A stretch of DNA of 64,000 bases, from positions 96,001 to 160,000 of IMG/VR virus record IMGVR_UViG_3300035670_000009; one strand, given 5' to 3'. A model generated the notes under the pieces. It had not been told where the DNA came from. It ran no database searches and saw only the letters and a program-made list of their open reading frames with translations. This document shows positions 4,600 through 64,000 of the stretch, piece after piece. Position numbers and translations under genes: made by a program. This DNA comes from a virus (lineage: Duplodnaviria; Caudoviricetes). How positions within the stretch are numbered: position 1 is the first letter of the stretch; each line of letters begins with the position of its first letter.

Positions 4600-7219
4600 T
4601 TTGTGTGTAGTCACTCCAGAATTGATCACACCACTTTTTGTTAACTAACAACCCGGGCATGTTATGTACAACCTGTTCCCCGAACGAAAGCCCGTGGCGG
4701 CTCAACATTTCGGTAATTGCCGTCCAGTGCGGTGCAATTCCGCCGACAGCAACACAATAACGTTCTATGGCGCGCTGATTCAACCACCAATGTTGTTTAT
4801 TGCGCAATAAATAATTGCCAGCCTGATCTTTGCGGCGGGGTCTGGGGAGCACGTCCAGCTTTCCAGAGACGATTCCAAGGTTGACCACTTCCATCAGGGC
4901 CTCGTGTGCCCGGTCGGGGGTGAGCAGCCTGTTGGTCGCGCATGCCAGGTTGAAAGTTGCGCCATAGATATCTTTGAGCCACGCGGCAAGGTCCTCCAGC
5001 ACGGCGGTTGTCAGGCTATTCCCGCGCGTAACTAGCGCTACCCGGCGTTCAAGCGTGCTTTGGATGTAGCTTGGCAGAACGTATCGCAGCGCTGAGAAGT
5101 CCGGCATTTGTTCCGGCGGCTTGCCGCGGATCCACTGCCAGCCGTAGCCGGGCGCGAGACCCGCCGTGGGTTCCGGCAGCCGTGCTAATACGTGCCCAGC
5201 TGGAATGCGAACAACAATTCGACAAAGGTTGATATCGCTGAACGTGTGCGCTGCGAAAACCGGCCAATGTGCCTCGTCGACGGCCTGCCGCACAGGAACA
5301 GCTGAGTTGTGTTTGTTTATGGAAGCGGCACGAATTTCCTGGCAGCTAAGACTAGCGCCTAGCATTGCCGCGCTTGCATACTCTGGACCACTAAGCGCCG
5401 TAGCCGTCGGCTCACGGCCTACAACTGGCGCAAGCAGGTCAGCGGCGATGGCGGCAAACACTGTCCAGAGATAAGCGTTTTCGTGCGTAGGCGTAAGCAG
5501 CTGGCGCAGCGTAACAGGCGCGATCGGCGTTGGTTCCGGAAAGTCCGGCACGTCCCGATTAATCTCGGGATGCTGGAAATGGGTTGTGCGTCCGTCGTTT
5601 TCTAGCGCGTATCGTTTCAGGCAAAACTGACTGGTCCGCTCGTTCCAGCCGCTGCGTCCCGAGACGTGCGCGATCTCGGGCTCGTGCAGCCGCAGGGCGA
5701 GCATGCAGCTGCGTGCGTTCCAGGTGCGGTCGTACAAGAGCAAGATGCCCTCGGCCGCTGCATGCTGGGCGGCATACGCTAAAAGCCCGACGCGTTCGAT
5801 GCGCGAGGCCAGTTCAGAGAACGCCAGTTCTTTTTCTGCCGTGCGAATGCGCCCGACGTAAAGACGATCGCCGTTTTCCGCGTGGACAATTGTGTCGATA
5901 CGTATTTGCGCGTTGACAATCTGGTGGTTTGTGTGCGTCCACCAGCAGCCGTTGCGTTCGATAATCAGCGATCGTTTCTGTGTGACCTTGGTTGGCACAT
6001 TCAGTCCGGTCTCGACTTGCGCCAGCAGCCGCCCGCAGAAATCAGGGGACAGGCTGTGTTGCCGCGTACGGAAAAAGTTCTGCAAGCGGTCCAGATCTAC
6101 AGTGAGTTTGGTTACAAACGCCTGCGCCGCAGTTTCGTTGGTGTCAGTCAGCACGTTTTCCAGCGCACATTGCCACGTCTGCGCCTGTCGACGGATCTGC
6201 GCCAGCCGCGGCATCGTTCGCGCCGGAGTTGCTGTTCGCTCGACCTTTTCAGGCGGTAGCACGCAAACGTATCCTTTTGCCGCAGCGGCCTGAGAGATAC
6301 TTTCTGGCGTGTAACTTGCCGCGTGAAAAAAACGCGGCGTGTGACTGAATGATTGCCAGTTTCGTCCGGTGCTTGTCGCTTCTGGCCCGCTGTAACTTGC
6401 GGAAATAGGAAGCAACGAAAGTCCGGCCTTGAGCTGCGCTGTCTGTACTTTAAGCAGCCAAAACGGATCATCGGTCACGAAATAGGCATTGCGCAGCAGC
6501 GCAGGGCTGGGCAGCAAAACAGTGTCGAGCAGGAAATAGCCCGCCTCGGCCTTGCGTTTGATGTGCGAACTGGCCGCCACAAATGCGCGCCGCGACATGA
6601 ACTCGTCGTTGTATTGCACGAGCAGCATGCCGGTGAGGCGCCCGGGCAGGTCATAGTGCGGCAAGATCAGGGTCGGCCCGTGCTCGCGCATTCGAGGCGG
6701 CGTCGCGCGCCCCATGGCGTGGCAGTATTCCGCAACCTGGTCCGGGTGCGCCACGCCGACGAGCCCACAACAGGCATCCACCGTGTTATCCAGCCCCAGC
6801 TCGCGCTGGCGGCAGGCGATTACGTCGTCGTGATGGTTCCATATTTGTTCGCGCGCCGTGGCCCAAAACTCTTCGGCTGCGGCGAGCCGCGCAGCGGCAC
6901 GATGATATTCGCACGAAAGGCGGTCAACCTCGCTCCGTGACGCCATACCCAGGTCAGAAAAGCGCGTTAATGCCTCGGCGGCGCTTATGTTCCAGATTCG
7001 GGCGCCAAAGGTTATGATATCTCCATGCGCGCGGCAGGATTCGCAGTGCGCCCAGACGCCATCGCAAACTACGTCATCGAACAGGTAGAGCGCGGGTTGC
7101 TGGCAGAAAGGACAATCGACGACCGCCGGAAAAGCGGGCTTTTCTGGCAGAATGCCCAGTGCCGACAGGGCGTTGAGATGGTTGTGTCGGCGGACCAAAG
7201 ATGCAGGTAACGACGCCAT
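4580..7219 (-). CDS. Large protein with N-terminal primase-type Zn finger and a DUF927/helicase-like C-terminal half, apparently with a degenerate P-loop
   Basis: 879-aa ORF; CPFC...HCESC...GDIITF resembles a CHC2-type Zn-binding domain; later FAAIAADLLAP...LSGPEYAS sits where GxxxxGKT is expected in DUF927-type proteins. ORF is certain, function is tentative. Confidence 0.55.
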   Translation of the reverse strand: MASLPASLVRRHNHLNALSALGILPEKPAFPAVVDCPFCQQPALYLFDDVVCDGVWAHCESCRAHGDIITFGARIWNISAAEALTRFSDLGMASRSEVDRLSCEYHRAAARLAAAEEFWATAREQIWNHHDDVIACRQRELGLDNTVDACCGLVGVAHPDQVAEYCHAMGRATPPRMREHGPTLILPHYDLPGRLTGMLLVQYNDEFMSRRAFVAASSHIKRKAEAGYFLLDTVLLPSPALLRNAYFVTDDPFWLLKVQTAQLKAGLSLLPISASYSGPEATSTGRNWQSFSHTPRFFHAASYTPESISQAAAAKGYVCVLPPEKVERTATPARTMPRLAQIRRQAQTWQCALENVLTDTNETAAQAFVTKLTVDLDRLQNFFRTRQHSLSPDFCGRLLAQVETGLNVPTKVTQKRSLIIERNGCWWTHTNHQIVNAQIRIDTIVHAENGDRLYVGRIRTAEKELAFSELASRIERVGLLAYAAQHAAAEGILLLYDRTWNARSCMLALRLHEPEIAHVSGRSGWNERTSQFCLKRYALENDGRTTHFQHPEINRDVPDFPEPTPIAPVTLRQLLTPTHENAYLWTVFAAIAADLLAPVVGREPTATALSGPEYASAAMLGASLSCQEIRAASINKHNSAVPVRQAVDEAHWPVFAAHTFSDINLCRIVVRIPAGHVLARLPEPTAGLAPGYGWQWIRGKPPEQMPDFSALRYVLPSYIQSTLERRVALVTRGNSLTTAVLEDLAAWLKDIYGATFNLACATNRLLTPDRAHEALMEVVNLGIVSGKLDVLPRPRRKDQAGNYLLRNKQHWWLNQRAIERYCVAVGGIAPHWTAITEMLSRHGLSFGEQVVHNMPGLLVNKKWCDQFWSDYTQNAREFG

Positions 7220-8390
7220 GGCAAATCCGCTCGACCAGACTCAGGACATCAGTGGCCGCGAAACCCATCGGCTGACGGCGCTTTTTTCACCGCCAGATTT
7301 TGTGAAGACCGCCAGTCAGGACAGGCTCGTTGGCGGCGACAGTCTGCAGCGGCACATGTACGCCGACCCGCACGCCAAACTTTATCCGTGCCACAGCGCT
7401 CCCGCAACGTGGATGTCCGCCCTTTTCTTTGAAGACAAGCGCGCGGCGTTCGAAACAAACCGGGCGCAGAAGATCGAAGAACGGCTTGACGCCGCTGCCA
7501 GTTATTTTGGCATCACCGGTCTTGTAAAGGAACTGCGCGACAAAGCTGCGGCCGCGGCAAAGACCGATCTGGCTAACTTACCTGACAGCGCGTTCGCTAT
7601 TGTCTGGGCCGACGAGGCGGGCAACAAGGACCGCCATTGGCCGCTGCGCAACGCCACCGAGGTGAAGTTTGCGGCCGCCCATTTCAAGACGCACCGAGAC
7701 CAGTTCACTTTCGAGGACCGGCACACGATCGCCACGAAGATTCTCGAAAAGGCAGCCGAGTACGGCGCCGACACGAGCGAGGCCGAGGACACGCTGCACC
7801 TGGCCGCCGGGCAGGGCGCCTGCGCCGCTAAGGTCGCCAGCGACATGCTCCGCAACCGTGCGGCGCTGGTGGCGCGACAGAGCCCCGAAGCCGCGGGCGG
7901 CATGCTCAAGCTGGCCGAGGTGGTAGATAACAACCCGGAGCAAGCGCGGACGCATGAGACGCGTCTCAAGTTGGCTGCTGCAGTCGACGAGTTTGACCGG
8001 GCTAACCGGTTGGACCGGCTTTACGATTCGGGCGGGCTGCCCAGAGCAGAGGAAGTCCTGTTTGCGATCACCGAGAAGGTGGCTGCAGACTTCATGAAGG
8101 CCCATGTAGAAACTACTACGGGCAACGTTTACAACCTCGAAGACCTCGAGAAGCTCGCCGAAAACGACGTCCGATCCTGGATGGGCGACGAGTTCGCGGA
8201 CGCTGTGACGGCCGGAGGCGTGTACCTCGACCGTGACAAGCTTGCGGCCATCGTGCCCACCCTGGACCGGGGCATGGCGGCCACGCTCGACCGTTTGGCG
8301 GCCGAGAAAGGGCTGGCGCCCGCGGTGAAGTCAGCGGCGGCGGACAGCCTTCTTCCGCTTGGGCGGCTTTACGAGCTGGCTAATGGTTGA
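7218..8390 (+). CDS. Hypothetical protein (390 aa), probable virion/head-associated
   Basis: One of only two convincing plus-strand genes; codon usage looks like the structural genes; ATG at 7218 (ORF track 7152); nine K-x-A-[A/S] motifs like the head-module proteins. Confidence 0.8.
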   Translation: MANPLDQTQDISGRETHRLTALFSPPDFVKTASQDRLVGGDSLQRHMYADPHAKLYPCHSAPATWMSALFFEDKRAAFETNRAQKIEERLDAAASYFGITGLVKELRDKAAAAAKTDLANLPDSAFAIVWADEAGNKDRHWPLRNATEVKFAAAHFKTHRDQFTFEDRHTIATKILEKAAEYGADTSEAEDTLHLAAGQGACAAKVASDMLRNRAALVARQSPEAAGGMLKLAEVVDNNPEQARTHETRLKLAAAVDEFDRANRLDRLYDSGGLPRAEEVLFAITEKVAADFMKAHVETTTGNVYNLEDLEKLAENDVRSWMGDEFADAVTAGGVYLDRDKLAAIVPTLDRGMAATLDRLAAEKGLAPAVKSAAADSLLPLGRLYELANG

Positions 8391-49130: not shown

Positions 49131-51965
49131 TCAGACGACCAAATGAAGCTCAATGTTATTGAGCGGGGCCGGAACAACCAGGTCGAGAACGATCTCGATC
49201 CGATCGCGCAGCAGCGGATGAATCCGCAAAATGCGGATCGTGCCGTCGATCAGCTGCGAGCCCAGCTCAATGGTATTACCGTTGGTTTTGAAGAAGTCGA
49301 TGATCTTCGTGACCTCGTAATCCAGCTGGCGCACCATCGACGGAGTCGCATTGGTCCGGCCGATGTACGGACGGAGCCGACGGAGGAACAGGTAGGAAAT
49401 CGAGTCCACGTTGCGGCGGATCATCTCTTCCCGACGATTCAGGTCGAGATTGTCCGTCGTCAACGCGTGCCGCGTGTGCGGCGTGCCGTCACGGTCCTCC
49501 GTCACGATCCACACTCCTGCCTCGGCCATCCGATTCAGCTGCGTTTCGTTGAAGTACTTGTAACTACGCGTGAAATCGTCGAAACCGGCAACCTCGACGT
49601 TCGTGAGTCCCTGCTGCGGGACCACGCCCGACGCAAGACCCGCGAGCGCCGCGGCGAGGTAATAACCCGCCATAAGCGTGCCTGCTTCGCCCACCTGGTC
49701 CGGCCACACTGCGGCGACGCGGCGGTTCGAAAACGCACCGGCCCGCGTTGCGATGTCATCAGCGATCTCGTTGCGGTTGAGATTGTGATGCACCTCGACC
49801 CGCTGCGCGATAGACACAGGAGCGTCGGCGCCCGAGTAAAGCAGCAGCGAATTTTCAGAAAGCACCGCGTCTACAACGAACTCCTGATACTGTTCCTCGC
49901 CGAAACCGTCCACCGTGTACAGGTAACGTACGAGGTCGCCCGGCTGCACTTCGTTCGTAACGAAGTAGCCGCTTCCCTCGGACACCTGCAGCAGCGTGTA
50001 CTGCGTATTGGTGGCGTTCGGATCGTCGCTCAAGGTCGCCAGCACCGGCTCGGGCATTGTGAGTCCGGCCACGCCGGTGATTGCCGCGCCTTCGCCAACC
50101 AGGAGCTTGCTGGTCACCGCCTGCAAGGCGAAGAAACCAGCCTTCCAGTTGTTGGCGTACTCGTTCGACTCACCGTTGATATGCGCGGCGTACAGGTTGT
50201 GAACGCGAACGTCAAACGTCATCGGGACGAGGTTATACATGTCGTCCCGGCCCTTGATGCGCTCAAGAACCTGAACCCAGCTATCAAGATCCGTCGGCTC
50301 AAGAACCGCTGTGTACTTCACCACGGTTCCGTTGCTGTTGGAAAGCGCCTTGTAGACGCCCCACTTCAGCGGGTTGTCCGGGTGAAGCTGACCCGCAATC
50401 TTGTCCAGCTCGGCCACGCTCTGCACGCTGTTGACCTCGTCGGTCAGATCGCTAAGCCACTCGCGGTACTCGACGTAAAGCGTACCGCCACGAACGTCGA
50501 GCGGCTGTTCAACGCCGTTATCGGTCCATTCGGGATGGTAGGCGACGATGCCCTCGTGCACACAGATCTGCGTTGCTTCCTGCGCGTAGTTCTTCAACGG
50601 CGCAAAACCGATGCGGTTCTCAGACACCTGAATGTTGTCTTTGATGAACAGCCGCAGCTCGATGTCAGAAGCCGACGCAATTTCAAGCGGAAGATCGTCG
50701 CGAAGGATCAGCCGCCGAACAGGTCCGGCCTGGCTCGATTCCGCATTGATGTACCACTTGTCGCCCTTACGCAGCCCAGGAACCGGATCACCGGCATCTG
50801 CACCGTGGAAAGTGATCGTCACACCGTGCGAACCGATAGCCACCGCCACGTTGTGATCAACGACTTCGGTCGGGCCCGAATAGTCGAGACCCTTCACAGT
50901 GCGAACGGTGATCTCGGGAAAACCGGTCGGGCTGCTCTCGTCGAACAGGCCGCCCTTGGTGCACTCGACGATGTAGACGTCGTTCTTGTCGCCGTCGTAG
51001 CCGTCGCCGCCCGAGGTCGCTTCGACCTTGGTGAACTCCTGCTCCACGACTACGCGCCACTTCTGGCCGGTCACTAGCGCGTCCGGCGCGACGTTATCGT
51101 CGTCCGCCGCCACTGAGCAAGCGCTCGACGGATCGTAATCGAATGTCACCGTAAGCCCGCGGGTACCGATCGCCGTCGGCGTGCCCCAGTCTTCGGGCGT
51201 AACCTCAGCCACGTCGTCGTTGCCACTCGCCGAGCGGACGCGCAGCCGAGCAGCCGCGCAACCAACGACTGAGCTCTTGATAACCTCGATTGTGTACTCT
51301 TCTTCGATGTCGCCATCGACGAGGCCGTCGTACTCAGAAGCGTCGACCGAGGCCACGATGCAGTTATCGGGCCCCGCGATCTTCGTGAGCGTAGCGCTCG
51401 TCGACCCAACGGCATCCTGATTGTCCTGATCAGCCGCGGCCTCTTCGATCTGCGACGCGACCAGCTCGCTGGCGAAACCGGTGACAGTTGTCCACAGTTC
51501 CTTTTCCTCGCAGCTCTCGCTGTCGACTGCGCGAAGATAAACCACGTCGCCGCGCTGAACATCGCGATCGTTGAAGACCGAGCTGCGCGGATAGGCCACG
51601 CCATTGCTCTTGAACGCCAAGTCGCTCGACTGAATCCAGTTCGTGCGACCGCTGACCGCGGTGATCGTGGTCGACGTGTCGCCGAGCATGTGCTCGTAGA
51701 AGAGCAGCAACGCGTCGTCGATGTACAGCTTGGTGTACGACTCGTCGACGTTCGAACCCGGCAAACGACGCGGCCATGCGTAGCAGGCGTCGTTCAGATA
51801 GTCGTACGCGCCCAGACGGCAATCTCGTTTTTCGTCCGCGTCGTTGTAGCGATGGAGCATCGCGTGCGGGCCGGAGATATGAGCGCGCAGCGGCTCCGTG
51901 ATCTCCGTCGGGATGATCTGGAATTCCTGGAAAACGAGAACTTGTGGTTTAACGTAGCTCGACAT
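49131..51965 (-). CDS. Tail sheath protein (944 aa)
   Basis: C-terminal LNRMAEAGVWIV...RHALTT...REEMIRRNVDSI...YIGRTN...IVLDLVVPAPLNNIELHLVV is the conserved sheath C-domain; strong codon bias. Confidence 0.9.
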   Translation of the reverse strand: MSSYVKPQVLVFQEFQIIPTEITEPLRAHISGPHAMLHRYNDADEKRDCRLGAYDYLNDACYAWPRRLPGSNVDESYTKLYIDDALLLFYEHMLGDTSTTITAVSGRTNWIQSSDLAFKSNGVAYPRSSVFNDRDVQRGDVVYLRAVDSESCEEKELWTTVTGFASELVASQIEEAAADQDNQDAVGSTSATLTKIAGPDNCIVASVDASEYDGLVDGDIEEEYTIEVIKSSVVGCAAARLRVRSASGNDDVAEVTPEDWGTPTAIGTRGLTVTFDYDPSSACSVAADDDNVAPDALVTGQKWRVVVEQEFTKVEATSGGDGYDGDKNDVYIVECTKGGLFDESSPTGFPEITVRTVKGLDYSGPTEVVDHNVAVAIGSHGVTITFHGADAGDPVPGLRKGDKWYINAESSQAGPVRRLILRDDLPLEIASASDIELRLFIKDNIQVSENRIGFAPLKNYAQEATQICVHEGIVAYHPEWTDNGVEQPLDVRGGTLYVEYREWLSDLTDEVNSVQSVAELDKIAGQLHPDNPLKWGVYKALSNSNGTVVKYTAVLEPTDLDSWVQVLERIKGRDDMYNLVPMTFDVRVHNLYAAHINGESNEYANNWKAGFFALQAVTSKLLVGEGAAITGVAGLTMPEPVLATLSDDPNATNTQYTLLQVSEGSGYFVTNEVQPGDLVRYLYTVDGFGEEQYQEFVVDAVLSENSLLLYSGADAPVSIAQRVEVHHNLNRNEIADDIATRAGAFSNRRVAAVWPDQVGEAGTLMAGYYLAAALAGLASGVVPQQGLTNVEVAGFDDFTRSYKYFNETQLNRMAEAGVWIVTEDRDGTPHTRHALTTDNLDLNRREEMIRRNVDSISYLFLRRLRPYIGRTNATPSMVRQLDYEVTKIIDFFKTNGNTIELGSQLIDGTIRILRIHPLLRDRIEIVLDLVVPAPLNNIELHLVV

Positions 51966-56672: not shown

Positions 56673-57071
56673 TCACTCGGCGTTCTGCATCGCCGCGGCG
56701 GCAGCAGCCTGCAGCGTGAGAATCGCGTTGGCGATCTCAGGCTGGCCGACCACCACATCCGCAGCCCCGTTAAACGCCGCCGACTTCTCGGTCGCCGCAG
56801 CGTCCGCACCGCCCATGCCAGCAGCAGCAAGCATGGCATCCAGCTCCTGGTTCACAGCGACCAGGCCCGAAGCGCTCGCCGCGGCGGCCTTCTCCTGCTC
56901 AGCCGTGTAGAGCACATGAAGCTTCTGCGCAGCCGACCACATGTCGGCGGCTTCCTGCTCAGACCGCGGCGCGATGCCGTGAGCAGACAGCTTCTCAAAG
57001 AAATACGGCGCAGCAAGCTCCGACACAATCGTGTTGTAGGCCTGCTCGGCCGCGACTTTTACATCATCCAT
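56673..57071 (-). CDS. Ala-rich hypothetical head-associated protein (132 aa)
   Basis: AAGGAG RBS; KVAA, KAAA and KSAA motifs. Confidence 0.78.
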   Translation of the reverse strand: MDDVKVAAEQAYNTIVSELAAPYFFEKLSAHGIAPRSEQEAADMWSAAQKLHVLYTAEQEKAAAASASGLVAVNQELDAMLAAAGMGGADAAATEKSAAFNGAADVVVGQPEIANAILTLQAAAAAAMQNAE

Positions 57072-57098
57072 GAGTAGTGCTCTCCTTGTTTTGATCCG

Positions 57099-57130
57099 GG
57101 GCAGCGGGCGTTTTTAAGCGCCCGCTGCCC
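57099..57130 (-). other. 12-bp GC-rich stem-loop downstream of the capsid gene, without a U tract on the minus strand
   Basis: GGGCAGCGGGCG / CGCCCGCTGCCC; probably a 3' mRNA-stabilising or attenuating structure. Confidence 0.6.
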
Positions 57131-57151
57131 GAAGATCGCTATATCACGGCA

Positions 57152-58078
57152 TCACTTGAAATCGACGCGAGCGAGACCGTTCGTGTGACCGAACGAGCCG
57201 CCCTGCGTGTTGTAGGCGAAGTACTCGAGCATGTACGCCTCACGACGGATGTACATCGTGGTGGGCTCCAGCTCGTAATTCTTGCCAATGAACTTGGGCG
57301 ACGCGAACATGAACATCGAGTCGTCCGGCACAAGGTCGCGCTTGATCGTGACGATCCAGCGGCAGTTGAGGAAGTTGGTCTCCGCCCAACCGTTCTTGAT
57401 GATGTCCTGCGAGAAATCACCGCCCATCTCGTCGCGGCCGAACTTCAGCAGCTCTTTGATGGTGATGTTGTTCACCAGGCAGGTCTCGACCTCGAAGTGC
57501 GAGGGCGTCCGCGGCATAACCTTCAGCGCGTCGACAATCGTCTCACGCGTGATGCCGCCGTGGATTTCCTCGTACTGCACGACACCGGACGCAACGTTCG
57601 CCACGCCCGGGGTCGGGAGGACGGCGTTGAACGCGGCGATGAACTTGGAATCCTCTTCCGCCAGCATGTCCTTGATCATGTTGTCGGAAAGGACCTGACG
57701 GATGTCGATCACGTAGGTACGCAGCTCGTCGACGTCCTTCACAGCGCGGGGCGACACGATCCGGTCAAACATGACGCGGTATCGCGGGCCACGGATGTAG
57801 AAGTTGATCGGGAGCGTCGCGAACGGGAGCGACACAGCCGCCGGGGAGTCGGGTTCCTTGTCGACCACCTTGACGGGCTTGTCAGTGTCAACCTGACGGT
57901 CAAGCTCGTCGTTGGTGATGGTCAGCGGCGGCATAATCCGCCGGTAGAACCCGTCTTCACGCATCTTGGTGCGCGTGAAGTCGTTAACAGCGTCAACGGC
58001 CTGCTTCTGCATGCCGGGGGTGTCAAGCTGCTCGAAGAGCGTCTCGTTGAGCAGCTGGATTTCTTGCGGAGTGGGCAT
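57152..58078 (-). CDS. Major capsid protein (probable HK97 fold, 308 aa)
   Basis: After protease/scaffold/decoration genes; very strong codon bias (C/G-ending codons); C-terminal GGSFGHTNGLARVDF is typical of capsid C-termini; strong RBS and downstream hairpin. Confidence 0.78.
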   Translation of the reverse strand: MPTPQEIQLLNETLFEQLDTPGMQKQAVDAVNDFTRTKMREDGFYRRIMPPLTITNDELDRQVDTDKPVKVVDKEPDSPAAVSLPFATLPINFYIRGPRYRVMFDRIVSPRAVKDVDELRTYVIDIRQVLSDNMIKDMLAEEDSKFIAAFNAVLPTPGVANVASGVVQYEEIHGGITRETIVDALKVMPRTPSHFEVETCLVNNITIKELLKFGRDEMGGDFSQDIIKNGWAETNFLNCRWIVTIKRDLVPDDSMFMFASPKFIGKNYELEPTTMYIRREAYMLEYFAYNTQGGSFGHTNGLARVDFK

Positions 58079-58082
58079 TTAA

Positions 58083-58098
58083 GGAACCTCCATGTTCC
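58083..58098 (-). promoter_or_regulatory. RBS hairpin of capsid gene, GGAAC-AUGGAG-GUUCC; candidate CsrA site
   Basis: Perfect 5-bp stem, AC-AUGGAG-GU core. Confidence 0.7.
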
Positions 58099-58118
58099 GG
58101 GTGTAACTAGGGATGGAC

Positions 58119-58667
58119 TCAGGCGGCCTCGCCCGGGAGCCACACGGTCCAGAAGGACAGTGCGAAGACCCCGTTGTGGTTTTTGGCCTTACCGGACGAC
58201 ACGACACCGACCACCGGCGTCACAAACTGCTCGACCGACTCGTTGGTGATCCGACCACCGGTCGTGGCGTCGGAATTCGAAGCCACCGCGGTGAGAAGAT
58301 CGCCGGGAGTGTAAGTGCGAGACGAGTCGAACTCCGTCGACGCGATCTCATAACCACCCGTCGCCACAAGGCCGGACATCTTGCCGGTCGGGGCGATGGC
58401 CCGGTGCATGAAATTGCCAGACGCCGTGGTGCCGGGGTTACTGACGTCCGCTTCGGCCGAGCCGTTGAGCAGAAAGACCGCAACGCCGGTGTTGTGCGCA
58501 CCCGGCCGGAAATTGCCGTCCGTATCAACGTGAACCACGCGACCGCGCGGGACGTCGAAAGAAACGACCGAAGCGAGCTTGGCGTCGTAGTCAAGGGCGG
58601 CCATCTGGAACCAGCCCTTTTTGACGTCGAGCCCCTTCTCAGTGATCAGATTGGGAGCAGTTGCCAT
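58119..58667 (-). CDS. Putative capsid decoration/cement protein (182 aa)
   Basis: Immediately upstream of the capsid gene; beta-rich, YTPGDLLTAV...GRIT...VVGVV pattern typical of decoration proteins. Confidence 0.62.
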   Translation of the reverse strand: MATAPNLITEKGLDVKKGWFQMAALDYDAKLASVVSFDVPRGRVVHVDTDGNFRPGAHNTGVAVFLLNGSAEADVSNPGTTASGNFMHRAIAPTGKMSGLVATGGYEIASTEFDSSRTYTPGDLLTAVASNSDATTGGRITNESVEQFVTPVVGVVSSGKAKNHNGVFALSFWTVWLPGEAA

Positions 58668-58670
58668 GTT

Positions 58671-58686
58671 AAGACCTCCATGTCTT
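58671..58686 (-). promoter_or_regulatory. RBS hairpin of decoration gene, AAGAC-AUGGAG-GUCUU; candidate CsrA site
   Basis: Perfect 5-bp stem, AC-AUGGAG-GU core. Confidence 0.7.
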
Positions 58687-58715
58687 TTTGGTGAAAATCA
58701 CAGATCCATGTGAAA

Positions 58716-59141
58716 TCAGGCAGTGGGCGGGTTCAGACCAAGACCCTGGAACAACTTGATGTCCGAGGCCTTGAGCTTGCCGTCACGAGCGCCCACATAC
58801 CCGCTCGTCAGGCTGTTCGACGGGTCGTAACCGGCGGTTTTGGTAGCCACCGGCGTGCCCAGGCGTGCCATCTCGGCAGCGTTTTTGTGCGCTGCGAGCT
58901 TGATCACGAGTTCCATGGCGCGCACCGGATTAGCGAGAGCCGCTGCAAGGGCCTCTTTCTGGTGCGGCTCGACCCGTTCGTTTTCGAGACAGGCCTTCAC
59001 AGCTTCAGGGATCAGGCGCGCCAGCTTCTCGTTCTGCTCTTCGCGCTCCTTGATCACCGCGGCGGCCTTGGTCATCGCCGCATCGGAAAAACCGATGTAG
59101 TCGACGATGTTTTGGACCAGCGGGTTATTGCAGTTGGACAT
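58716..59141 (-). CDS. Hypothetical head-associated helical protein (141 aa)
   Basis: CACGGAGG RBS; head operon. Confidence 0.78.
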   Translation of the reverse strand: MSNCNNPLVQNIVDYIGFSDAAMTKAAAVIKEREEQNEKLARLIPEAVKACLENERVEPHQKEALAAALANPVRAMELVIKLAAHKNAAEMARLGTPVATKTAGYDPSNSLTSGYVGARDGKLKASDIKLFQGLGLNPPTA

Positions 59142-59162
59142 GGTTTCAAACCTCCGTGTGAT

Positions 59163-60452
59163 TTACCGGTTGACGAGTTCCAGAACGTGCTGCTTCATGA
59201 TGTCGCGCAGCTGACGCGACCGCTTGGTGCGTGCTTCCTTGACCTGGAACTTGCCGCTCCGCTTGAAGTTGATCACGGCCGCGCCGATCGCGTTCAGGTC
59301 GTTCACTGAAGCCATCTTGGGCGCCATCTCGGCGCCAGCCTCGGGGCCAGCGGGCGGCATGTCGCCTGCGCCGCCACCGCCCTGCAGGGCACCAATCAGA
59401 GCCTCGGGCGGAATGCCCAGCTCTTCAAGCGCCATGGCCAGCTCCTGAACCGCCTCGTCTTCTGACGGGGCGCCAGCGCCCTCGGCACCCATCGGCATTG
59501 CACCGGCGTCTTCGCCGCCCATCATGCCCTCGAGACCGGCGGATTCAGCGCCCATCTCTCCGGCCGGGCTTGCGCCGGACTCGTCGTCACCGGGAGCCGA
59601 GTGATCCTCGCCTTCCGCAGCCTCATCGCCCATGTCCGCAGCCGCGGCCTTTGAAGCGAGGAAGCCAATGAACAGGTCCGCCATCTCGTCGGCCTCGCGG
59701 AGCGTGTTTGCCGCAACTTCGCGCACGGACGCTTCAGCCGCCTCTTTGCTCATGCCGAGCGCCGCGGCCAGCTCGTAACCAGCTTTGAAAGCGGCTTCCT
59801 TGCCCTCGCGAAGAGCTGCGAGATCAGAACCCTCGATCTTGCCGTCGTTGTCAACGTCAAGTTTGTGCTGATCACCCTTCAGCTCCCCCTTCGGCGCGTC
59901 CTTCTTCTTTTCCTTGAGGAAGGCAGGCATCTCGGCGGACTTCTCTGCGCTGGCGTTGAGCAGCGTCGCGAGAATGTCGTTACCAAGCGCCGCGGCTCGG
60001 GTCATCGCTTCTTTGAAAGAAACCGACGAATACTTTTCGCCGTCGTTTGCCTTCGCGGGGTGCGAGGTGCCCGGGTCGTCCTTGTCGCCCTTGTAGTCGT
60101 GCTCGGCGGCCGGATCTTCGCCAGTGGCGGCAACGTTTGTGCCGATGTTCTGCTGGACTTCGTCCTGACGGCCCTCATAGGGAAGCTCGGGAGTGTTGTC
60201 CACTGCGAGCGCGCCCTGCTGCTTCTTGATGTCGGCTTCGTATTCCGACGCGCGCGAACCAGTCTCCGCCTTCTGCACGTTGTTGTCGACGTGCGCGGTG
60301 GGGTGCGTAGACGCGCCCATGTAAGTGCCGGGGTCCGCCGGGGTGGGGCCGCCCTCCGCCTTTTTCTCGGCGGCTGTTTTCACAGCAGTGTGTGAAATCT
60401 CTTCGGCCAGGGCGTTAAGCTGCGCGAAAAGCGATCGTTGCATCCGTGCCAT
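59163..60452 (-). CDS. Putative scaffold/internal head protein (acidic, Ala/Gly/Glu-rich)
   Basis: ATG 60452 with AAGGAG (ORF track 60476); low complexity; between protease and decoration/capsid genes. Confidence 0.6.
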   Translation of the reverse strand: MARMQRSLFAQLNALAEEISHTAVKTAAEKKAEGGPTPADPGTYMGASTHPTAHVDNNVQKAETGSRASEYEADIKKQQGALAVDNTPELPYEGRQDEVQQNIGTNVAATGEDPAAEHDYKGDKDDPGTSHPAKANDGEKYSSVSFKEAMTRAAALGNDILATLLNASAEKSAEMPAFLKEKKKDAPKGELKGDQHKLDVDNDGKIEGSDLAALREGKEAAFKAGYELAAALGMSKEAAEASVREVAANTLREADEMADLFIGFLASKAAAADMGDEAAEGEDHSAPGDDESGASPAGEMGAESAGLEGMMGGEDAGAMPMGAEGAGAPSEDEAVQELAMALEELGIPPEALIGALQGGGGAGDMPPAGPEAGAEMAPKMASVNDLNAIGAAVINFKRSGKFQVKEARTKRSRQLRDIMKQHVLELVNR

Positions 60453-60497
60453 GTTCTTCTCCTTTAGGCTCCACACGCTCTAACGCGCGGACTCCAT

Positions 60498-61955
60498 TCA
60501 AGTGATGTAATTTTGCAGAACACAATGGTTTGCTGTCAACCAGCAATTTCCATATTTCTCGCTGAGGGTCGCGTAAGCCGCAATCTTATAGAAAGCGTAC
60601 TGCCGCGCAAGTGCCGAAGCCGCGGGTTTATTATCGCCCGCCTCCTTGGCAAGAGCTGCAACCTGCACGTCGCGAAGCGCGCTATGGTAAGCGCGCTTTT
60701 CCACGGCTTGCGGTCGTACACTGTGCGTCATAGCTACCTTTTCAGCCCAGACCTGGACAGGCATTGCCGCGGCCGGAGCCGGAAGAAATGCGTTGTTTTC
60801 AAGCTCGCCCGCGGTGTCCGGGTCGTTTGCAAGTTTACTGAAAATGCTATCTAGCGCGCTAGTCACAGCGCGCACCAGGTTATCGCTCGCGGCTTTTACA
60901 GTAAGCGTTAAGAAATCGCGGACGGGGAGCACCACTCCCGCATCGGCTAGCGCGCGCAGGACCTGCCCGAATTTCACGTTCTCGCAAGGCGCAAAGTCGA
61001 CCGGCGGCTGCGCGTTAGCCGTCGACGCCAGCGCAACTTGTGTCCAGGCGCGGGGGTCGTGGATTACCGCGCGCTCGGCCGCGGCCAGTTTTTCAAGTGC
61101 CGCGAGTTGGCTTTGCAGCTGCAGGCTGGTGGCAACACGATCGAAACCCAGCGGCGCTGTAACGCCCAGCTGTTCGGCCAACTCGGCCCCTGAGAGCACA
61201 CCAGCGCTGGCTGCCTTTTGCAGAGTGCCAGAGATGTAGGCAATGCGATCAGCGGGGCGGAAAACGTGGCTGATGTCGAAGAACGTCGGATCGGGGTTGT
61301 CGGCGTGAAGGATGTGGCCGTCAGCGAGAACCCGCCCCAGGTTGTGTTTCAGCCCGCCCGCCTTGCACATGCCGCCATTCTCGACAGAGTCGCAATACTC
61401 TGCGCGCGTGCGAGCTTTGTTTCCGCAGCCAGAGCAAACGTCGAAAGGAATCTTGCAGGCCATCGAAACACCGATATCGTCGCCGCGAGCCAATTTCTCC
61501 GTTTCTTTGTCGGCGAGCAGGCCGCCGTTGCGCTCGGCAGCCTCCTTGCTGGCATTTAGCGCGCAGATCAGCTCGATCCGGTGCATTGGCTCGTTGTAGG
61601 CAGCGAGCTTCACAACGCCGTAGCTTTTGGCCGGGTTCTTGTTGAGATGGTCGCGGTAGAAACGCGCAAACTTCTCGAACGTGTGGTGGTGCTTGCGGCA
61701 GCAGTCGCGAGTGAAACCGTCGGCATTGCGGTTTGGGCCGTAATCTTCGGTGGCGCCGATCGCGATCATGTGGACCGGGATCTCGTCCGCCGCGAACTTG
61801 ATGCGGCTGAGGCGCTCGGCGAAATCCACGCCCGCGCGTTTCACAAAAGCGTCCTTGTCGGCTCCCAGTAGGCCGCGGCTGGAAATTTTAATTAGCGACG
61901 CTACCGGCTCGCTGAAATCCTGCGAGTTCGGCTGGATGATCTTGATCATGCTCAT
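60498..61955 (-). CDS. Prohead protease-like protein (HK97/assemblin-like fold) with CxxC insertion
   Basis: NRNADGF, YRDHLN (candidate catalytic His), IGVSMAC (candidate Ser), CSGCGN, FFDISHVFRPAD (like the EVSxVxxPA motif of HK97-type proteases). Confidence 0.72.
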   Translation of the reverse strand: MSMIKIIQPNSQDFSEPVASLIKISSRGLLGADKDAFVKRAGVDFAERLSRIKFAADEIPVHMIAIGATEDYGPNRNADGFTRDCCRKHHHTFEKFARFYRDHLNKNPAKSYGVVKLAAYNEPMHRIELICALNASKEAAERNGGLLADKETEKLARGDDIGVSMACKIPFDVCSGCGNKARTRAEYCDSVENGGMCKAGGLKHNLGRVLADGHILHADNPDPTFFDISHVFRPADRIAYISGTLQKAASAGVLSGAELAEQLGVTAPLGFDRVATSLQLQSQLAALEKLAAAERAVIHDPRAWTQVALASTANAQPPVDFAPCENVKFGQVLRALADAGVVLPVRDFLTLTVKAASDNLVRAVTSALDSIFSKLANDPDTAGELENNAFLPAPAAAMPVQVWAEKVAMTHSVRPQAVEKRAYHSALRDVQVAALAKEAGDNKPAASALARQYAFYKIAAYATLSEKYGNCWLTANHCVLQNYIT

Positions 61956-61964
61956 AGGAGTGCC

Positions 61965-62591
61965 CTAGTTGTTGCCGCGGTTCAAGAGCGAATACATCAA
62001 AAGGGCGCCAGCAGCTGGAATGCCGAGCTTTCCCGCTCGCGGAAGTTTGCTGAAATTTTTGGCCAGTTCGCCGCTCCCTCGGAGCGTACTTTTGATGTAG
62101 GGCGCGGCAGCTGGTACTGCCTTGCCAGCCTGCAACGCGCCGCGCACCGCCGCGCGATTAATCTGTTTGGCCGCGATCGGCGCATAGCCTGCAGCGGCAG
62201 CGGCACCAGCAGCGCCCAGGCCGACGCCGACGCCCTTGGCTACTGGGCTGAGTTTGCTTTTTACCGGCGCCTGAAGACTCTTTGGAGGCGGCGCAGTCGC
62301 GTCGCCAAGCATTTTTGCGCCGAGCGTCAAACCACCTGCGCCCAAACCGCCAAGCAGCGCGTAGTGAAGCGCTTTCCGTTTTTTGTCTTCGCCGCCGGTT
62401 GCAAGGCCGAGCAGCCCGCCTGCGCCAGCGCCTAGCAACGCATTACGCAGCGCAGGATTTTCCAGCGCTCCCGAAAGATGCGACTGGATGTCGCCCATAT
62501 TCAGCGCCGCCTTCACCATTGGATCTGGCTCGCCGTACACCGCTTGGTGCGCCAGGTTTTCGGCAAGGGCTTGAAGTGTGGTGTCTTCCAT
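61965..62591 (-). CDS. Gly/Ala/Leu-rich hydrophobic protein (possible internal/ejection protein)
   Basis: Several glycine-zipper segments (LLGAGAGGLLGL, LLGGLGAGGL, GVGVGLGAAG). Confidence 0.68.
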   Translation of the reverse strand: MEDTTLQALAENLAHQAVYGEPDPMVKAALNMGDIQSHLSGALENPALRNALLGAGAGGLLGLATGGEDKKRKALHYALLGGLGAGGLTLGAKMLGDATAPPPKSLQAPVKSKLSPVAKGVGVGLGAAGAAAAAGYAPIAAKQINRAAVRGALQAGKAVPAAAPYIKSTLRGSGELAKNFSKLPRAGKLGIPAAGALLMYSLLNRGNN

Positions 62592-62598
62592 GACTTCC

Positions 62599-64000
62599 TC
62601 AAATCATCTGCCGTTCGAGATTTTTTGTGTCCATCTGAGCTTTTGCAGTTTCGGCCCTGGCCTTCTCCATGTCGATGAGCTGCTTCACATCGAAGTCGGC
62701 CATCTGCCCGGACTCAAGCCGTTTGCGCAGCAGCGCTTGCATAGCGGCCGGGGAGTCAACAAACTGCGGCGCCACGTCTGCCAGCTCGTTGAAAGCCTGC
62801 GCCACCTCGGTTGGATCGTGGCCGGAGATCACCGGGTCGTTAAGCACCATATCGTGGAGCATGCTCTGTGCCCGGATGTTGCGCAGGGCCGTCTCGTGCT
62901 CCGGATCGGTAAGGCTCTGGTAGGCCTTGGTCTTCATCTTTTTCTCGCCTTCAGCCGCGCCCTGCGCCATTCGGCTGGCGATGGCCTTGGCCGCGCTGAG
63001 GAAACCGCTGCGCACCGGAGCAAGGCTAAAGCCGCCGCTTTCGCGCTCGCCGCCGCGGCTACCTTGTCGCCGCTGCCGACCAGAACGTGATGGTTGAGAA
63101 GGGCGGCCACCGCCGCCAGAACCGCCACCGCCAGAACCGCCACCGCCAGGACCGCCACCGCCAGGACCGCCGCCTACTGGCCCCGCGTCTTCAAAGCTGT
63201 CGGGTTCCGCGCCCTCGTCTGAGTAATCGAGTTCGTCGTCTTCTGGAATTAGCGGCGAGCCGGAGTTTCGCTGTTGCTGCTGGCGCGCAGCTCGATTAGC
63301 AGCCTCGTGCGCCAGTTGCTCGGACCGCATCCGGTCGTATTCATCTTCGGGCATTGTTTCGTCCTGATGCACCCAAACAGGGTTGCCGAGCTTATTGTCA
63401 GGCATAACAAGTCGGAAATTGTCGCCCGGCGATGGTCGCCGATTGACAAAGTCTGCATGCGCTGCCGGGTCGACCTCAGTTCCCTTGTTGCCAAGCCGCG
63501 GCGCGCCTTCTTGCCCAGCGCGCGGCGGATCGACTAGGCCCCAGCGATCGCCAGCCGCCATGGCGCCCTTTAACACCAGCGGTTCATCGGCCGGGTTGTG
63601 CAGAATGCTTCCGGTGACGACCGCTGGCTCAGCTTTTTTTGCTGCGGCCTGCTTCGCCGCGGGCACCCGCGCCTGCGCCTCGTTGTAAGCTTCAAGGGCG
63701 CTGAGCACCGCGGCGGCCAGCTTGCAGGGCTGGCAATCGCCGATGATGACGTCCTTTGTGGCGGCCTGCTTGGTCAGGTGCGGGTAAACGGCGGCTAGCT
63801 TGTTAAGCACGGTCACGCCGTCCTCGCCGTAGCGCAATTCGGTCTCGCGCACGGCGTCTTGAAAACTCAAATTGCCCGGACGGCGGAAATACTCGTGAAG
63901 CTCTTCCATCGCCGCCGCGGCTTTGCTGTAAGCCGCCGTGGCCTGACGACGAAGCTCTTCCTGGGCCAACTCTGCAGCCCGCTTCTCAGAGGCAGCCCGT
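62599..64000 (-). CDS. Large head-module protein, 5'-truncated by the window; Gly-rich linker
   Basis: Frame stays open from 63969 to the window edge (...RAASEKRAAELAQ...); GGGGP/GGGGS repeats at about 63100-63180; many KxAA motifs. Confidence 0.75.
   Translation of the reverse strand, partial: RAASEKRAAELAQEELRRQATAAYSKAAAAMEELHEYFRRPGNLSFQDAVRETELRYGEDGVTVLNKLAAVYPHLTKQAATKDVIIGDCQPCKLAAAVLSALEAYNEAQARVPAAKQAAAKKAEPAVVTGSILHNPADEPLVLKGAMAAGDRWGLVDPPRAGQEGAPRLGNKGTEVDPAAHADFVNRRPSPGDNFRLVMPDNKLGNPVWVHQDETMPEDEYDRMRSEQLAHEAANRAARQQQQRNSGSPLIPEDDELDYSDEGAEPDSFEDAGPVGGGPGGGGPGGGGSGGGGSGGGGRPSQPSRSGRQRRQGSRGGERESGGFSLAPVRSGFLSAAKAIASRMAQGAAEGEKKMKTKAYQSLTDPEHETALRNIRAQSMLHDMVLNDPVISGHDPTEVAQAFNELADVAPQFVDSPAAMQALLRKRLESGQMADFDVKQLIDMEKARAETAKAQMDTKNLERQMI

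Follow-up and report, generated by a model that had tools for sequence, protein, structure and literature searches.

Eight minus-strand head genes of an uncultured phage, running from position 62599 down to 56673 of the DNA analysed here, are strongly enriched in the motif K-x-A-[A/S], and one of them, at 60498-61955, encodes a prohead protease to judge by its fold and conserved residues. It is probable (about 0.65) that this enzyme cuts after the Ala of K-x-A, freeing itself and shredding the core proteins of the head. The whole stretch of DNA under study (the window; 64,000 nucleotides) corresponds to bases 96001-160000 of one 203,910-bp contig (C1), in which gene calling gave 234 genes. The phage (~204 kb), a myovirus, has a sheath gene, and its RNA polymerase subunits, portal and capsid are related to those of Salmonella phage Arash and Vibrio phage D181. 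Features are collected in Table 1.

Enrichment of K-x-A-[A/S] in the head genes

The eight head genes together have 26 copies of K-x-A-[A/S], where per-protein shuffles lead one to expect 4.8 and reach 14 at most in 5000 rounds. The gene at 62599 starts past the window end, and counts refer either to its in-window part, as above, or to the whole 618 amino acids (aa). With this gene taken whole, the count is 28 against 5.4 (shuffles per protein), 6.1 (local shuffles in 20-residue blocks) or 6.7 (10-residue blocks). Among 8000 gapped words scored in the in-window head genes, K-x-A-A ranks first (22 against 3.8, p 1.4e-10; ~1e-6 corrected). The control motifs K-A, K-xxx-A, A-x-K, R-x-A (19 against 18.2 expected), R-x-A-[A/S] and E-x-A-[A/S] are all at chance in the head genes, and K-xx-A shows a marginal excess only.

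The head proteins contain 16% Ala, and the counts could be a by-product of helical proteins rich in Ala and Lys, the outcome that the earlier note had named as fatal to its proposal. This explanation retains next to no probability and is refuted by the local shuffles, by the control motifs and by the range of guanine-cytosine (GC) content, 32-70%, over which the pattern holds; furthermore, the 21%-Ala gene at 61965-62591 has no K-x-A-[A/S]. The excess in the head genes is not an effect of Ala/Lys composition, and the enrichment by module proposed in that note survives both the per-protein and the local controls. All the tetrapeptides it listed are present in the sequence, and the motif, described there as rare in sheath and baseplate proteins, is at chance level in the tail, sheath and baseplate genes (6 against 5.7). 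In the remaining genome, motif-rich neighbours removed, it occurs 45 times against 39.5. The statement that the motif saturates the head module holds as strong enrichment, but the module is not uniformly saturated, because 61965-62591 lacks K-x-A-[A/S]; the portal gene, located elsewhere in the genome, has no K-x-A at all.

The same pair leads in relatives, which share ancestry, so that their counts are not phylogenetically independent. Of 45 dereplicated loci surrounding protease homologs (GC 32-70%; Arash-like phages and phage G among them), 44 have K-x-A as the leading one of 380 residue pairs, and K-x-A is also the top pair in the head modules of Arash (46 against 21) and D181 (51 against 23). 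The families of 56673, 58716, 59163, 62599 and the 791-aa gene just past the window are each ~4- to 8-fold enriched for K-x-A-[A/S], whereas the neck, sheath and decoration families are not. The sheath family (49131-51965, minus strand) has fewer K-x-A than expected (1.1 against 2.5 per sequence), which may reflect shared ancestry.

Pooled sites carry a hydrophobic residue at K-2, Glu, Val, Thr or Gln at K-1 and Ala, Ser or Glu at K+3; Asp, Gly, Asn and Pro are depleted at K+1, and a small residue is enriched following the Ala. Written out in full, the consensus reads hydrophobic-[E/V/T/Q]-K-x-A-[A/S]. Within families, the Lys of a site is conserved at 0.72 against 0.63 for other Lys and the Ala at 0.72 against 0.53 for other Ala, while the middle residue is less conserved than average (0.48 against 0.59). 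Exchange of Lys for Arg is no rarer inside sites than outside (6.0% against 6.9%). In actinophage relatives Arg leads at the first motif position, followed by Lys and His, which argues that this position shifts with the protease lineage. As a positive control, the identical scan of the T4 head operon returned I-x-E and L-x-E, the known P3/P1 pair.

The clan SH protease and its relatives

The earlier note had read 60498-61955 as a prohead protease, and the predicted fold together with the invariant His, Ser and Asp bears this out and places the enzyme in clan SH. A structure model of residues 1-250 (predicted local distance difference test, pLDDT, 90.6) was matched by VIA structure comparison to the proteases of varicella-zoster virus (VZV; Z 10.0, root-mean-square deviation (rmsd) 2.7, 115 aligned), T4 (gp21; Z 9.6, rmsd 3.4, 140 aligned) and human cytomegalovirus (HCMV; Z 7.0), unrelated folds giving Z <=5.1. 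The top Foldseek rows were nearly all herpes and T4 proteases, with E above 0.05. The modelled domain is a beta-barrel of the herpes/T4 type, with His, Ser and a third acidic residue in that order, and the gene sits upstream of the capsid gene within the head operon, as is characteristic of the clan's prohead proteases. By this order and by conservation, His103, Ser164 and Asp227 would form the triad. The four-Cys insert between the last two is likely to bind zinc; once it is removed, the Ser-Asp spacing approaches that of SPN3US gp245 (H77, S153 and D178). By eye, inteins interrupt two homologs (P0122 and P0186): directly behind the catalytic His, after Gly73, and two residues past the catalytic Ser; insertion next to the His or the Ser is usual for active-site motifs.

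Searches of Pfam, NCBIfam and PDB sequences gave no match for the protease, and the only PHROGs match was phrog_2774, of unknown function. By tblastn, homologs were found in Arash (gp222), Vibrio phage D181 (gene 277), phage G (gp19), Rhodococcus phage E3 (gp77), Gordonia phage Stormageddon (gp13) and ~200 Bxz1-like phages. These are true homologs at 31-42% identity; for phage G gp19 and E3 gp77 the E-values are 5e-12 and 2e-8 by tblastn and 4e-24 and 5e-18 by hidden Markov model, and the alignment spans the His, the Ser, the Cys insert and the acid-x-Ser motif. Their head genes are rich in K-x-A in Arash, D181 and G, and in R/K-x-A in the actinophages. At 50% identity, the family counts >2,700 representatives. 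A divergent SH clade is mentioned for group 3 jumbo phages by Iyer et al. (PMC7824862). By sequence, the present enzyme belongs to the clade of phage G gp19 and E3 gp77, already annotated in part as prohead or maturation proteases (E3 gp77 as prohead protease). The jumbo-phage clade is probably the same one. The literature searched, which did not cover the phage G structure paper (PMC7316594), gave no cleavage specificity for this clade and no Lys-x-Ala specificity for any phage; nothing was found there on a K-X-A motif of proheads or on processing in Bxz1 or E3.

T4 gp21 (PDB 5jbl) resembles the present enzyme in fold, His-Ser-Asp order, a gene adjoining those of scaffold and capsid, core proteins with many sites and the P3-x-P1 form of the motif. 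It differs in reading I/L-x-E where Lys-x-Ala would be read here, in its 10-12% identity, and in lacking the four-Cys insert and the long C-terminal half. With phiKZ gp175 (MEROPS S80) and SPN3US gp245 the enzyme would share many internal head substrates, C-terminal self-cleavage and a preference for Ser at P1', and both kinds of phage have a multi-subunit RNA polymerase (PMC5694885, PMC10052503, PMC7411985); gp245 removes its own C-terminus (PMC5694885). Those enzymes cut after Glu, while here no Glu-ending pair stands among the top gap-2 pairs of the head genes, the portal is free of sites and the capsid protein is small (308 aa). The herpesvirus assemblins (VZV 1vzv, HCMV, pseudorabies virus pUL26N; PMC4498786) are alike in fold, in the predicted P1 Ala with a small P1', in a releasable C-terminal part and in the precedent of internal sites, which are known in the proteases of HCMV and of KSHV (Kaposi's sarcoma-associated herpesvirus). 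Their sites are YLQA↓T and VQA↓S, and cleavage releases the C-terminal scaffold (PMC4498786). They differ in having an aliphatic residue instead of Lys at P3 and a Ser-His-His triad with two consecutive Arg in the oxyanion loop; the alignment places Asp227 and a single Arg237 here.

Candidate substrates and neighbouring genes

The protein of 59163-60452 matched no family and is probably a scaffold or core protein, as its position and composition suggest. Neither it nor the proteins of 58716 and 56673 showed homology to the Arash or D181 genes in matching positions. The KLAS reported in the decoration protein is present; however, K-x-A occurs in 7 of 40 relatives, so that this site is not conserved and lacks support. 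The product of 61965-62591 may be a leader-type cargo protein. The 62599 protein contains a Gly-rich GGGG[P/S] repeat linker (62934-63180, minus strand) in its K-x-A-free region.

By homology and structure modelling, 57152-58078 encodes the HK97-fold major capsid protein, whose sole K-x-A, KQAV, falls outside the K-x-A-[A/S] pattern. Its K25 and A27 are invariant in 28/28 sequences and in 26/26 distinct segments, Arash-like phages included, with Q, E, T, R or K between them; the Arash and D181 capsids have K-E-A-G at the equivalent place. The site had been put at residues 24-27 with a propeptide of ~26 aa, whereas counting from Met1 it spans 25-28 and the propeptide would be 27 aa. The alignment with the homologous phage G gp27 begins at residue 29/28, so the N-terminal segments of the two proteins are equal in length. 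The structure model is weak in the N-terminal half, residues 14-136 being too weak to place the N-arm. The sequence gives cleavage of the capsid at residues 25-27 about even odds.

The strongest motif gene genome-wide (9 against 0.84) is 7218-8390, one of the few plus-strand genes. Its sites are kept in 8-13 of 13 sequences and are spaced with a coefficient of variation of 0.23 against 0.88 (0 of 20000 random placements as even); even spacing is not significant in the other motif-rich genes. Since cuts at these even, conserved sites would leave no fragment larger than 44 aa, the protein suits a disposable core protein, and it is a candidate for such a role or for the main scaffold. It has neither a family nor a homolog in cultured phages, blastp showed no repeats within it, and its sites may instead belong to a diverged helical repeat. 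Four small genes elsewhere encode proteins that begin [F/Y]-[E/K]-[F/L]-G-[F/Y/R] (4 against 0.04), with K-x-A within 40 residues. By analogy with T4, the shared leader with its K-x-A is a candidate capsid-targeting sequence (CTS).

Two RNA polymerase subunit genes lie within the head module (C1:164248-171471). Their homologs, Arash gp206 and gp216, are abundant in Arash virions, and the genes show no K-x-A enrichment. The 341-aa protein encoded at C1:174387-175412 (L193:16388-17413) looks papain-like by eye, from its Cys, His and Asn-Ser-Trp-Gly motifs; it has no Pfam match and no homolog in cultured phages.

Table 1. Positions of the protease, its predicted residues and sites, and the genes of candidate substrates (window coordinates unless prefixed C1, the contig)
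Feature	Position	Strand	Remarks
Prohead protease, 485 aa	60498..61955	-	Clan SH domain (~residues 42-246) and C-terminal half with nine K-x-A sites
His103, predicted catalytic His	61647..61649	-	Invariant in 110 divergent homologs, Arash, D181, G and actinophages
Ser164, predicted nucleophile	61464..61466	-	Invariant; model strand 162-168
Asp227, predicted third triad residue	61275..61277	-	Invariant in divergent homologs; Glu in phage G and actinophages
Cys174/177/188/197 insert between Ser164 and Asp227	61365..61436	-	All four invariant among divergent homologs
K39-R-A-G, upstream of protease domain, candidate N-terminal trimming site	61830..61841	-	K-x-A in 103/112 homologs; counterparts in Arash, D181, G
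K247-A-A-S, domain end, candidate release site	61206..61217	-	K-x-A in 81/112 homologs
429-aa acidic, Ala-rich protein, 10 K-x-A	59163..60452	-	Family mean 10.1 vs 5.0 expected (40 relatives)
141-aa probable core protein, 6 K-x-A	58716..59141	-	Family mean 5.4 vs 1.6
132-aa Ala-rich probable core protein, 3 K-x-A-A	56673..57071	-	Family mean 3.1 vs 0.5
Probable cement/decoration protein	58119..58667	-	Atlas neighbours at 0.97, PF22758 on 13-24% of members
HK97-fold major capsid protein, 308 aa	57152..58078	-	hhalign to phage G gp27 96%; Foldseek capsid matches; 28% to Arash gp226
K25-Q-A-V, sole K-x-A of capsid protein, candidate propeptide boundary	57995..58006	-	K25 and A27 invariant
208-aa Gly/Ala-rich protein	61965..62591	-	One N-terminal site, K27-A-A-L; no K-x-A-[A/S]
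C-terminal 466 aa of 618-aa protein, related to Arash gp220	62599..64000	-	All 13 K-x-A in residues 7-298
791-aa protein related to Arash gp218	C1:161789-164164, just past window		11 K-x-A, two clusters around a site-free 291-aa block
390-aa orphan protein, 12 evenly spaced K-x-A	7218..8390	+	Candidate core/scaffold, 48 kb from head operon
Four otherwise unrelated Gly/Ala-rich leader proteins	C1:12342-12893, 173057-173401, 196541-197176, 197196-197855

Proposed cleavage and competing explanations

In the proposed mechanism, the protease would be packed in the procapsid core together with several motif-rich proteins. Recognition would involve Lys at P3, Ala at P1, a hydrophobic residue at P5 and preferably a small one at P1', with scission after the Ala; the P3-P2-P1↓P1' reading of K-x-A↓[A/S] is suggested by its consistency with the Ala↓small cuts of herpes enzymes and the P1' Ser of gp245. 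Conserved K-x-A sites (K39 and K247) flank both ends of the protease domain, the last model strand ends at 244, and in the place of the K247 site Arash, D181 and phage G gp19 have L-[QE]-K-V-A. The catalytic domain would be freed at A249↓S250, and probably at A41↓G42 too, while its own C-terminal half would be degraded to short peptides. The same fate would meet the core proteins of 59163, 58716 and 56673, the N-terminal half of the 62599 protein and the protein of 7218-8390. Short leaders would be trimmed off cargo proteins, and the capsid protein may lose 27 residues. That the motif is cut at all, the position of the bond and the roles of the substrates are proposed by analogy with the known systems. 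The earlier note had put forward this cut, together with a capsid propeptide and autocleavage of the enzyme's C-terminal half, a reading that the analysis supports in part.

Several observations weigh against cleavage after K-x-A. Capsid A27 is in most cases followed by Val or Ile, residues that other sites are depleted in, and K-x-A is absent from phage G gp27. The scan of SPN3US, made on whole proteins, failed to return A-x-E, so a cleavage motif need not show up as enriched in every case. The coverage figures and supplement of the Arash proteome (PMC10585845) give no peptide termini, and no cleavage data for K-x-A sites were found in the literature searched. A single turn of amphipathic helix would match the consensus as well, with the hydrophobic K-2 and the Ala at K+2 on one helix face, and several conserved sites (residues 95, 137 and 154) belong to helices or strands within the folded domain of the protease. 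These structural points, together with the K-x-A-ending leaders on unrelated proteins, would suit a docking role for the motif, as a short helical signal that builds the core or directs cargo to the prohead and mostly stays uncut. Such a signal is unlikely, given the sites at both ends of the protease domain, the spacing in 7218-8390, which would leave short fragments only, and the equivalent enriched pair of T4, which is a cleavage site; targeting and cutting can moreover coexist, as in the T4 CTS (PMC5694885).

A slightly smaller chance is given to the same protease acting on the same motif but cutting after the Lys. HK97 gp4 and the SPO1/Twort-type proteases cut after Lys, K↓S cuts are known for this fold, and Arg and His substitute for Lys in the actinophage relatives. 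However, the strongest determinant, the Ala, would then sit at P2' and leave P1' free, whereas the T4 and SPN3US enzymes use P3-x-P1 and the herpes enzymes have P1 Ala with a small P1'. Far less probable is that the Lys is a modification or cross-linking site, or that the motif is read by another enzyme, such as a host protease or the papain-like protein encoded 14 kb upstream. That Arg does not take the place of Lys in the present clade, where R-x-A stays at chance, would fit this, but the actinophage relatives use Arg; the papain-like gene has no cultured-phage relative, yet Arash, D181 and G retain the motif, and hosts differ widely. Cleavage after the Ala of K-x-A by the clan SH protease is preferred to all of these.

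More tentatively, and with rather less than an even chance, a large myovirus lineage comprising the present clade, Arash-like phages, phage G and Bxz1-like phages may share a clan SH protease with a zinc insert, herpes-like P1 Ala and a basic P3. In this lineage the motif would double as a genome-wide address code, K-x-A leaders loading cargo and even sites marking disposable core proteins, e.g., that of 7218-8390, and sequence would suffice to read the internal head proteomes of uncultured phages. To our knowledge, only a handful of prohead proteases have a known specificity, with the cut placed after Glu in those multi-substrate phage enzymes that have been studied. The Lys-x-Ala rule, if true, would give the phage members of the clan a herpes-like specificity, and would allow unannotated internal head, scaffold and ejection proteins of these phages to be picked from sequence.

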